A stretch of 64,000 bases of DNA from an uncultured Gemmatimonadota bacterium (GTDB lineage: Bacteria > JAAXHH01), in the NCBI GenBank assembly GCA_951812955.1, contig OX638340.1, positions 2,144,001 through 2,208,000 on the forward strand, written 5' to 3'. Position numbers and translations under genes: made by a program. The notes under the pieces are model-generated. The model saw only the letters and a program-made list of their open reading frames with translations, had not been told where the DNA came from and searched no databases. This document shows, one piece after another, positions 25,264 to 28,200 of this stretch. Numbering within the stretch: position 1 is the first letter of the stretch; the number at the start of each line of letters is the position of its first letter.

Positions 25264-28200
25264 GTGTCGCGGTTTCTGGCATGCATGAGCGACCGTGGGC
25301 GCAGCGACGCGAGGCAACCGTGGCGCAGCGACGCGAGGCAACCGTGGCGCAGCGACGCGAGGCAACCGTGGCGCAGCGACGCGAGGCAACCCACGAAGTA
25401 TTATCTCCTGAAGGAGACCGCAATCTTCAGCAAGTCCCCTCTTGAAACAACAGAAACCCACCACCTGCTGGACCGGCTCCTGGCCGAACGCATACTCATC
25501 ATCGACGGGGCCATGGGCTCGGTCCTGCAGGGCCATGCCCTTGAAGAATCCGATTTCCGCGGCGATTCGTTCAAAGACCACCCTGTACCGCTGCGCGGCG
25601 ACCTCGACCTGCTGTCGATCACACAACCGGATCTCATCGAACAGGTTCACCGGCAGTACCTGGACGCCGGCGCGGACATCATCGAGACGAACACCTTCAA
25701 TGCCACGGCCATCTCGCAGGCCGACTATGGCCTGCAGGACCGGGTATACGACATCAACCTGGCGGCGGCAAAGATCGCGAAACGGGCCGCCGCGTCCGCC
25801 ATGGCCGCCGATCCGGAACGCCCCCGCTTCGTAGCCGGCGCCCTGGGACCCACCACCCGGTCGGCCTCCGTAGCCTCCGACGTCAGCGACCCGGCCTTCC
25901 GGTCCATCACCTTCGACGGCCTCGCTGACGCTTACGGCGAACAGGCCCGCGGACTCCTCGACGGCGGGGTGGACCTGCTCCTGGTCGAGACCCAGATCGA
26001 CACGCTCAACCTGAAAGCCGCGCTGTTCGCCATCAACACCCTCTTCGACGAAGGCATGCGCCGCGTACCGCTCATGGCTTCGTTCTGCATCGTCGACGCC
26101 AGCGGCCGCACGCTCTCTGGCCAGACCGTGGAGGCGTGCTGGACGTCCATTCGTCACGGCGAACTCTACAGCGTGGGGATCAACTGCGCCCTGGGCGCCA
26201 CGGAGCTGCGTCCCTATATCGAGGAACTGTCGGCCATCGCGGACCTTCCCGTCACCTGCTATCCGAACGCGGGCCTGCCCAACGAGATGGGCGGCTACGA
26301 CGACACACCCGAGTACATGGCCGAGATTCTGGGTGAATTCGCCGAAGAGGGCTGGCTCAACATGGTCGGCGGATGTTGCGGCACCACCCCTGATCACATC
26401 GCCGCGATCTCGGAAGCCGTCAGGCAGCGAGGGAAACTGCGCGTTGCCCACCCAGGCGAACCCCTGTCACGGTACAGCGGACTGGAGACCTTCACCGTGC
26501 GGCCCGACGGAAATTTCACCATGATCGGTGAGCGGACGAACGTGACGGGTTCGCGCAAGTTCGCCCGGCTCATACGGCAGGAGAAGTACGAAGAAGCACT
26601 CGGCGTGGCCCGTCAGCAGATCGAGGGCGGGGCGAACATCATCGACGTGAACATGGACGAGGGCCTCCTCGACAGCGAACAGGCGATGACCACGTTCCTG
26701 AACATGGTCGCATCGGAACCAGACATCGCCACTACGCCCGTCATGATCGACAGTTCGAGCTGGCCGGTCATCGAGGCGGGGCTCAAATGCGTGCAGGGCA
26801 AAGGGATCGCCAATTCCATCAGCCTGAAGGAAGGCGAAGAGGTGTTCAAGAGCCAGGCACGGCTGGCGAGGCGGTACGGTGCCGCCGTGGTGGTGATGGC
26901 CTTCGACGAGGAGGGTCAGGCCACGGACCCGGACCACAAGTTGGAGATCCTGAGCCGATCCTACCGGATCCTCACCGAAGAGATCGGCATGGATCCGACG
27001 GATATCATCTTCGATCCGAACATCCTCACCGTGGCCACCGGCATCGAGGAACACGACGCGTACGCCGTCAACTTCATCGAGGCCGTCCGGCGGCTCAAAG
27101 CGCTACACCCTCTGGCCAAGGTCAGCGGCGGCGTGAGCAACATCTCCTTCTCCTTCCGCGGCAACGACCACATCCGGGAGGTGATGCACGCCGCCTTCCT
27201 GTATCACGCCATCCAGGCGGGCCTGGACATGGGCATCGTCAACGCGGGGCAACTGGCGATCTACGAAGACATCGATCCGGAATCGCTCGTCATGGTCGAG
27301 GACGTCCTCCTCAACCGGCGGCCCGACGCCACCGAGCGGTTGCTGGAGTTTGCCGAATCGAGAAAAGGAACCGCCACCGAACGAGCGCGGAAGGACGAAA
27401 ACTGGCGCGCGGGCAGCCTGGAGGAACGCGTTTCCCACGCCCTGGTCAACGGTATTGCCGACCACGTCGAGGAGGACATGGAGGAGGCGCTGCAACGGTA
27501 CGACCGGCCGCTCCACATCATCGAGGGGCCCCTCATGGCCGGCATGTCCATCGTGGGAGACCTCTTCGGTGAGGGTAAGATGTTCCTGCCGCAGGTCGTG
27601 AAGAGCGCGCGGGTTATGAAAAAAGCCGTTGCCCTCCTGATACCGCACATGGAGGCAGAACACGGGGACGGCGGTGAGCGGCAGTACCAGGGTACCATCC
27701 TCCTGGCCACGGTGAAGGGGGACGTGCACGACATCGGGAAGAACATCGTGGGCGTGGTGCTGGGGTGCAACAACTACCGCATCATCGACCTGGGCGTCAT
27801 GGTCCCGGCGGAGAAGATCATCGGTACGGCCGTGGAAGAAGGCGTCGACCTCATCGGCTTGAGCGGGCTGATCACCCCGTCCCTTCACGAGATGATCCAC
27901 GTGGCCCGCGAGGTCGAGCGCAACGGCTTCGAAATGCCACTGCTCATCGGCGGCGCCACGACGAGCCGGCGGCACACGGCGATCAAGATCGAGCCCGCGT
28001 ATCACGGACCTACCGTGCATGTGACGGACGCGTCGAGAGCCGTGGAAGTGGTGGGCAACCTGATCAGCGACGATTTGAGACCCGATTACGCGCGGCGCGT
28101 TCGAGACGATTACCGGCGTGTACGCGACACCTACGAAAACAGGACGCCGCGCTCGCCCCTGGTGCCGTTCGCCGAAGCGAGCGCGCGGCAGCCCGTCCTC

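Follow-up and report, generated by a model that had tools for sequence, protein, structure and literature searches.

In a 64-kb stretch of DNA from an uncultured Gemmatimonadota bacterium (contig OX638340.1; hereafter the window, in whose coordinates all positions are given), the open reading frame (ORF) for the cobalamin-dependent methionine synthase MetH begins with about four head-to-tail copies of a 24-nt unit. The locus raises the question of whether this repeat is read as protein, forms part of a riboswitch or another regulatory RNA, or is passed over by a translation start further downstream. A first-pass annotation had named GTG 25264 and ATG 25285 as the two canonical in-frame starts; their coordinates and their frame proved correct, and the stretch ahead of the conserved MetH core holds no others. 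As the alternative, it had proposed a start at ATC 25423 behind AAGGAGA, with the repeat as leader RNA. Our comparison of 21 sequences strongly supports the latter. AUC 25423 is very probably the initiation codon of metH: the conservation itself is observed in the comparison, and initiation is what we infer from it. The array is, on the evidence of the aligned loci, best read as an expansion resembling a variable-number tandem repeat (VNTR) within the 5′ untranslated region (UTR), outside MetH and outside any riboswitch.

The start codon of metH

Searches of Pfam and NCBIfam identified ORF 25264–29151 as cobalamin-dependent methionine synthase. All five modules of the MetH architecture were found far above their cut-offs, namely the homocysteine (Hcy) S-methyltransferase (PF02574), pterin-binding (PF00809), B12-binding cap (PF02607), B12-binding (PF02310), and activation (PF02965) domains. 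The NCBIfam equivalog NF007024 matched with 1950.5 bits (cut-off 1497) and TIGR02082 with 1656.7 bits (cut-off 1010.85). Residues 9–1235 of the ATC-initiated protein aligned to positions 5–1233 of the 1234 positions in the NF007024 profile. In solved MetH chains, the first aligned residue lies 6–21 residues past the chain's own N-terminus; for the ATC start, this distance would be 15 residues.

Scanning a single genome for each species yielded 16 close relatives (L001–L015 and L050; 86–96% amino-acid identity) as well as distant MetH genes; a metagenome scan added L058 and L059, and two protein matches led to L103 and L104. The comparison set consists of the window and these 20 relatives (21 sequences), with 18 of the relatives scored for identity and all falling at 86–96%. 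The relatives are without exception uncultured metagenome-assembled genomes (MAGs); those of the 16 that carry a label are mostly Candidatus Latescibacterota, the group to which we also assign the genome of the window. Three features of the window matter for the start:

25423..25425, + strand: proposed metH initiation codon ATC (AUC in the mRNA); ATC TTC in 21 of 21 sequences; coding periodicity begins here
25411..25416, + strand: AAGGAG, the Shine-Dalgarno sequence, separated from the ATC by 6 nt; present at 5–6 nt in 21 of 21 sequences
25423..29151, + strand: proposed metH coding sequence, 1242 codons plus stop, with the five Pfam domains and the NF007024 alignment

Across the comparison set, AAGGAG, the 5–6-nt spacer and ATC TTC form an invariant block, so that a near-cognate codon is conserved together with a Shine-Dalgarno sequence at functional spacing, and the second codon, UUC, is as constant as the first. 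In the window the block reads AAGGAGA at 25411–25417, then 5 nt, then ATC. The spacer of L002 is 1 nt shorter, and therefore no reading frame crosses it. From the ATC to +90 the alignment contains no indels, and the fraction of variable sites at codon positions 1, 2, and 3 is 0.47, 0.33, and 0.80; upstream of the Shine-Dalgarno sequence and the ATC, both sequence and length are hypervariable among relatives, and beyond about −21 every site is variable at all three codon positions. Coding conservation hence sets in at a near-cognate codon, and half of the relatives offer no canonical substitute for it: in ten of the 20 (L002, L003, L006, L010, L011, L012, L014, L050, L059, and L104), no in-frame ATG, GTG, or TTG lies between the upstream stop and the ATC, and the next canonical in-frame codon follows only at +54 to +90, within the Hcy-binding barrel's first, conserved strand. 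After ATG 25285, the window has no further in-frame ATG, GTG, or TTG until the ATG at 25513 (the Met of DGAMG, +90), as had been stated for the interval between repeat and core.

More distant MetH genes, from other phyla and from a 72–73%-identical group (L016, L060–L062), have an ordinary ATG 8–15 codons before the conserved core motif, and the ATC start is therefore, as far as the alignment speaks to its history, a derived trait of one clade. AAGGAG also stands 6–8 nt before the ATG or GTG of six other ORFs in the window; judged from this placement, it functions as a Shine-Dalgarno sequence here.

If translation began instead at ATG 25285 (or GTG 25264), MetH would carry a new N-terminal extension of 46–53 residues including four RSDARQPW units. 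Both codons are in frame, the frame is open through the repeat, and L013, too, has an in-frame upstream ATG, at −69. The repeat read in the metH frame has a high GC content at third codon positions (GC3, 0.83), as coding sequence would; GC3 is 0.81 in the coding sequence, the repeat's AGG and CAA are in use as minor codons, and neither GC3 nor codon usage discriminates between coding and noncoding here. Against the extension, neither ATG 25285 nor GTG 25264 has a Shine-Dalgarno sequence ahead of it, and a different ATG of an ATGCATG pair is in frame in L013 than in the window, so that the frame is not conserved. Such a start is missing from ten of the 20 relatives, and the strong Shine-Dalgarno sequence kept in all 21 sequences would sit uselessly inside the coding sequence. 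Homologs, profiles, and solved MetH structures never cover the extension with its repeat, nor does any of these structures align to the repeat region. The fourfold RSDARQPW appendage considered in the first-pass annotation is encoded by no ortholog—L013 has a single unit, and half of the relatives lack a usable upstream canonical start—and in none did we find the repeat as conserved protein sequence behind a usable start and ribosome-binding site. We regard the extended protein as highly unlikely.

Several points nevertheless weigh against initiation at AUC 25423. The window and L013 both have an in-frame ATG upstream of the ATC, and a minor extended isoform may exist in these two. ATC is the preferred isoleucine codon in this GC-rich gene, and codon bias could explain part of its invariance. 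A predicted local hairpin pairs the Shine-Dalgarno core, which in combination with a weak codon would predict very low translation of a presumably needed enzyme. The case for the ATC is comparative throughout, drawn from relatives that are all uncultured, and the window's copy number might in principle stem from an error of assembly, a point to which we return with the array.

With a start of this kind, standard gene callers are unable to place the beginning of metH, and proteins of this MetH family acquire arbitrary N-termini. Among public calls, P0001 (L103) starts at an upstream ATG and P0003 (L104) inside the domain, with an internal TTG read as Met; the window ORF would be called with a spurious repeat-containing extension of 46–53 residues. 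In the European Nucleotide Archive (ENA) contigs of L103 and L104, metH is additionally split by apparent frameshifts into fragments of 136–169 aa and a remainder.

The tandem array and its leader

If metH begins at AUC 25423, the sequence ahead of it belongs to an mRNA leader, for which the following elements can be drawn:

25143..25171, + strand: predicted sigma-70-type metH promoter, TTGACG (25143–25148), 17-nt spacer, TAGTTT (25166–25171)
25178..25422, + strand: putative metH leader, 5′ untranslated and about 245 nt long, bounded by the conserved promoter and by the Shine-Dalgarno sequence and ATC
25292..25391, + strand: 24-nt tandem repeat, 4.1 copies, from Tandem Repeats Finder (TRF), exact search, and the L013 alignment

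The window and 18 relatives share TTGACG-N17-TAG(A/T)TT (TAAATT in L002) within otherwise hypervariable sequence, and the motif is visible in L103 and L104 as well. We predict this conserved element to be the metH promoter; transcription would then start at about 25177–25179. Given a promoter at 25143–25171, the repeat therefore lies within the 5′ untranslated leader. In the relatives, the −10 box and the ATC are separated by 55–251 nt of sequence in which indels are numerous and all codon positions vary equally; in four of them, this distance is only 55–59 nt, and these short forms lack the repeat region. Beside the −35 box of the window, at 25137–25148, we also noted an overlapping TTGACCTTGACG.

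TRF reports a single array at 25292–25391 (score 191), in which a period of 24 nt recurs 4.1 times with 98% matches. Its unit, ACCGTGGCGCAGCGACGCGAGGCA, occurs in three identical copies (25317–25340, 25341–25364, and 25365–25388), and the first copy contains one additional G; this confirms the array noted earlier. With up to three mismatches allowed, the unit was found nowhere else in the 64-kb window (0 matches expected from shuffles).

How recent the array is can be read from L013, the closest relative at 96% amino-acid identity. Aligned to the L013 leader, which has the unit once, the window has an insertion of 73 nt (3 × 24 + 1), and the two leaders otherwise differ at only about 11 positions; none of the other relatives has the unit at all. 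Near-identical head-to-tail copies thus differ in number between close relatives (4.1 in the window against one in L013). The single unit in L013 and the 73-nt gain in the window therefore mark the array, at the level of the alignment, as a slippage expansion that is recent and specific to this lineage, in keeping with the very recent slippage proposed earlier.

Leaders of other lineages hold arrays of their own:

L104, 449–517: 18-nt unit, 3.9 copies, 98% (TRF)
L012, −69..−34 from the ATC: 15-nt unit, 2.4 copies, 100%
L014, −133..−27 from the ATC: 38-nt unit, 2.8 copies
L007, −88..−42 from the ATC: 24-nt unit, 2 copies

From one lineage to another, the units have unrelated sequences. The L104 array occupies the same leader position as that of the window and follows an in-frame stop at −105 with no canonical start after it; it is therefore not MetH coding sequence. 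From the arrays compared, the metH leader is a recurrent site of tandem duplication, with arrays that arose independently across lineages. These arrays also speak to the possibility that the four copies of the window are an assembly artefact and the true copy number is lower. Perfect short tandem repeats are prone to mis-assembly, and the window's own genome was absent from the public collections searched, where MetH queries with three alternative N-termini also gave no match; against this, independent assemblies of relatives contain comparable near-perfect leader arrays (18 × 3.9 in L104, 15 × 2.4 in L012, 38 × 2.8 in L014), and an array of 100 nt is within reach of ordinary reads. An artefact seems extremely unlikely to us, and it would leave the conclusion on the ATC start unaffected.

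Per kilobase, TRF found 1.44 arrays in the 450 nt upstream of metH and 0.077 in the rest of the loci, the latter being mostly coding sequence. A second repeat hot spot lies about 4.4–5 kb downstream of the metH start in seven of 17 loci (window 30296–30375; +4370..+5030 from the ATC in L001, L002, L004, L012, L014, and L015). With a comparison sequence that is mostly coding and a second hot spot downstream, repeat-proneness may therefore be a general property of intergenic or non-coding DNA in this clade. Further tandem duplications, with units of 11–34 nt, lie at −235 to −74 in L001, L002, L006, L009, L015, and L050, where they closely precede the promoter or overlap its −35 box. Most of these units contain a TTGAC(G)-like −35 sequence, resulting in runs of −35-like boxes; they could be duplicated activator sites or simple slippage.

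The array shares the main traits of bacterial VNTRs: a head-to-tail unit of 10–40 nt, a non-coding position, a copy number that varies between relatives, and presumably an origin by replication slippage. The MIRU-VNTR loci of mycobacteria are intergenic tandem repeats of this VNTR or minisatellite-like type. The metH leader differs from such loci in that one mRNA leader has independently gained unrelated arrays in several lineages, and in that its polymorphism is known between relatives, not within a population. We conclude that the repeat is an ordinary leader expansion of VNTR type, best handled as a strain-level marker rather than as protein sequence, and most likely neutral or weakly modulatory.

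Regulatory readings of the leader

Could the leader, repeat included, act as a cis-regulatory RNA for metH, be it a riboswitch for S-adenosylhomocysteine (SAH), S-adenosylmethionine (SAM), or B12, or an array of hairpins bound by a protein or small RNA? Two predicted elements of the window bear on this question and on a related one, an upstream ORF (uORF):

25404..25417, + strand: predicted hairpin UCUCC-UGAA-GGAGA, which pairs the Shine-Dalgarno core (ViennaRNA)
25281..25445, + strand: candidate uORF of 54 codons in the +2 frame, spanning the repeat and overlapping the Shine-Dalgarno sequence and the ATC; considered unlikely

There are grounds for such a reading. The leader is long, GC-rich, and structured, and a pyrimidine tract pairs with the Shine-Dalgarno sequence. 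A block of about 20 nt that ends in the Shine-Dalgarno sequence (within −35..−7; window 25394–25416) reads GAAGUACAACCUCGUGAAGGAG in most relatives and GAAGUAUUAUCUCCUGAAGGAG in the window, the motif GGGACAUCCGC is conserved in the long-leader relatives with one copy per locus, and tandem arrays recur in the metH leader of several lineages. The hairpin of the window is found in L013 as well, and for the other relatives a weaker CCUC…GGAG pairing is predicted. Conservation of the GAAGUACAACCUCGUGAAGGAG block far exceeds the needs of a Shine-Dalgarno sequence, and its CCUC tract can pair with the latter.

The searches, however, gave no sign of a riboswitch. On the metH strand of the window leader (24900–25600), Rfam returned zero family matches at E ≤ 10; at the gathering score there was nothing in the window or in the loci of 16 relatives; and for one short leader (L015) and one long leader (L007), riboswitch matches were absent at E ≤ 10, with chance matches only. 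The chance-level matches across window and relatives were to CRISPR-DR, to 2dG-I on the opposite strand, and to small nucleolar RNA and microRNA families. The SAH or cobalamin riboswitch that the first-pass annotation had suggested looking for in Rfam thus found no match in the window leader or in its relatives. Folding of the window leader was no better than that of shuffled sequences (z = −0.04), a consensus fold was absent from the 5′ module of 13 long-leader sequences (RNAalifold, −2 kcal/mol), and extraction of the last helix from per-sequence minimum free energy (MFE) folds gave inconsistent architectures. The four leaders of 55–59 nt are below typical aptamer size, and a large aptamer is therefore not conserved at this locus; with lengths of 55–251 nt, short forms, and no consensus fold, the orthologous leaders share no SAH, SAM, or cobalamin aptamer. 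Nor do the arrays help: their units are unrelated between lineages, and copy number has no effect on predicted Shine-Dalgarno accessibility. When the number of perfect copies was varied in silico from 0 to 6, the pairing prediction stayed the same, with an unpaired probability of 0.01–0.05 for the GGAG core (ViennaRNA partition function); the core being paired at every copy number, the model therefore predicts no effect of copy number on ribosome access.

Compared with the known SAH riboswitches of metH and ahcY leaders (RF01057) and with SAM and cobalamin riboswitches, the locus is similar in lying upstream of a methionine-cycle gene and in having its Shine-Dalgarno sequence predicted to be paired; it differs in that a covariance-model match and a conserved aptamer are both lacking and the leader is dispensable in the short-leader relatives. 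A regulatory RNA thus appears very unlikely, and the array remains best explained as slippage in an untranslated leader. Another leader motif, GGGACATCCGC, is likewise present in one copy per locus, and the leader insert is therefore not a dispersed repeat in the sequence at hand. Judged by eye, the short-leader relatives appear to have a small GC hairpin in common, in which the changes compensate each other (CGCGG/CCGCG, UGCG/CGCA, and ACGCGGGG/CCCCGCGU).

Translation of the +2-frame uORF at 25281–25445, which would yield AQRREATV repeats, might instead regulate metH initiation, either through occlusion or because the hairpin is unfolded. A +2-frame ATG does occur in 12 of the 19 sequences scanned (11 of 18 relatives plus the window), at −55 in nine relatives (L004–L007, L009–L011, L050, and L059), at −46 in L008 and L015, and at −142 in the window, and the resulting ORFs mostly end shortly past the ATC. 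Yet all of these ATGs lack a preceding Shine-Dalgarno sequence, the ORF is missing in L001, L002, L012, L013, and L014, and the peptides resemble one another only where they overlap the conserved block of nucleotides that precedes the Shine-Dalgarno sequence. Among the sequences scanned there is accordingly no conserved small ORF with a start signal of its own, as would mark a regulatory uORF or leader peptide, and we consider its translation exceedingly improbable.

Predicted consequences of AUC initiation

How would an AUC start shape MetH synthesis? In the scheme that we propose, AUC 25423 would initiate metH in this Latescibacterota clade with the help of the strong AAGGAG at canonical spacing upstream; AUC would be decoded by initiator tRNA with a mismatch at its third position, giving a protein that begins fMet-Phe (fMet, formylmethionine); and the weak codon, combined with the strong Shine-Dalgarno sequence, would result in low MetH synthesis that depends on initiation fidelity and is sensitive to initiation factor 3 (IF3). 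If the AUU and AUA initiation codons of infC, pcnB, ebpA, and ccpN are a guide, the AUC start probably attenuates MetH translation.

Initiation from AUA, AUC, and AUU in E. coli reaches about 1–2% of that from AUG, and AUC-initiated green fluorescent protein (GFP) carries an N-terminal Met (bioRxiv 10.1101/063800). Natural AUU and AUA starts limit the expression of infC, pcnB, and ebpA (PMC4447247), and in S. aureus, conserved AUU and AUA starts with extended Shine-Dalgarno sequences attenuate output to about 10–30% of that from AUG, depending on the medium (PMC13009471). Genes with a conserved AUH start (AUA, AUC, or AUU) that attenuates translation include infC (AUU in E. coli, AUA in S. aureus), pcnB (AUU), E. 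faecalis ebpA (ATT), ccpN of S. aureus and B. subtilis (AUA), and cvfC1 (AUU). The metH locus resembles them in the conservation of its AUH codon, in having no canonical alternative nearby, and in its strong, well-spaced Shine-Dalgarno sequence (PMC4447247, PMC13009471, bioRxiv 10.1101/063800). It differs in the codon itself, AUC; in encoding a large biosynthetic enzyme instead of a regulator or translation factor; in belonging to an uncultured phylum; and in that initiation at the AUC and attenuation of metH are predictions.

A conserved near-cognate start with a strong Shine-Dalgarno sequence is thus of a known kind, and it is the AUC that is unusual. Our literature search for AUC or ATC start codons returned almost only mitochondrial, eukaryotic, or in vitro work, apart from a single weak uORF that starts at ATC in S. 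meliloti (bioRxiv 10.64898/2026.05.12.723736), and nothing on an AUC or ATC start of metH. With a choice of start codon conserved across 21 genomes, metH would extend the very short list of non-canonical bacterial starts by a natural and well-supported instance of AUC, in an enzyme central to the methionine and folate cycle. For this uncultured phylum, it points to a MetH set point controlled at translation.

One further idea, which we put forward as unlikely, is that the AUC start serves as a metabolic sensor, a riboswitch-free feedback loop on MetH in which start-codon fidelity depends on one-carbon metabolism. The fidelity of near-cognate initiation involves IF3, formylation of initiator tRNA, and SAM-dependent methylation of 16S rRNA (reviewed in PMC7949028). 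Formylation and rRNA methylation would both draw on the one-carbon and methionine cycle that MetH feeds; a shortage of methionine, SAM, or formyl-tetrahydrofolate (formyl-THF) would relax start-codon fidelity, and MetH synthesis would rise. The repeat-prone leader could, in such a loop, also tune the set point between lineages.

The remaining observations concern the surroundings of metH. One neighbouring gene bounds the intergenic region:

23823..25037, − strand: divergent class I/II (HisC-like) aminotransferase gene (PF00155)

NCBIfam hisC-like matches to this gene were below their cut-offs, AAGGAG precedes its ATG, and the gene calls of L103 and L104 place the same divergent aminotransferase next to metH. 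Directly after the metH stop, a 91-aa ORF lies convergent with metH (29187–29462, − strand), and an AAGGAG at 29150 that overlaps the metH stop codon has no start codon behind it. Another AAGGAG-N8-ATC, at 21297 on the − strand, was discarded as spurious, being antisense to an 803-aa ORF; the latter appears, judged by eye from its translation, to encode an FtsX/MacB-type ABC permease. Tandem repetition is also found further along the window. At 59311–60239, a 255-nt unit is repeated 3.6 times with 99% identity (TRF score 1837), with the motif GGGACATCAGC recurring at 255-nt spacing, and this is probably a very recently duplicated coding segment for repeat domains. Several arrays with a 72-nt period (24 codons) and 77–83% identity occupy 56998–59042 and resemble, by period only, coding repeats of the leucine-rich-repeat type.

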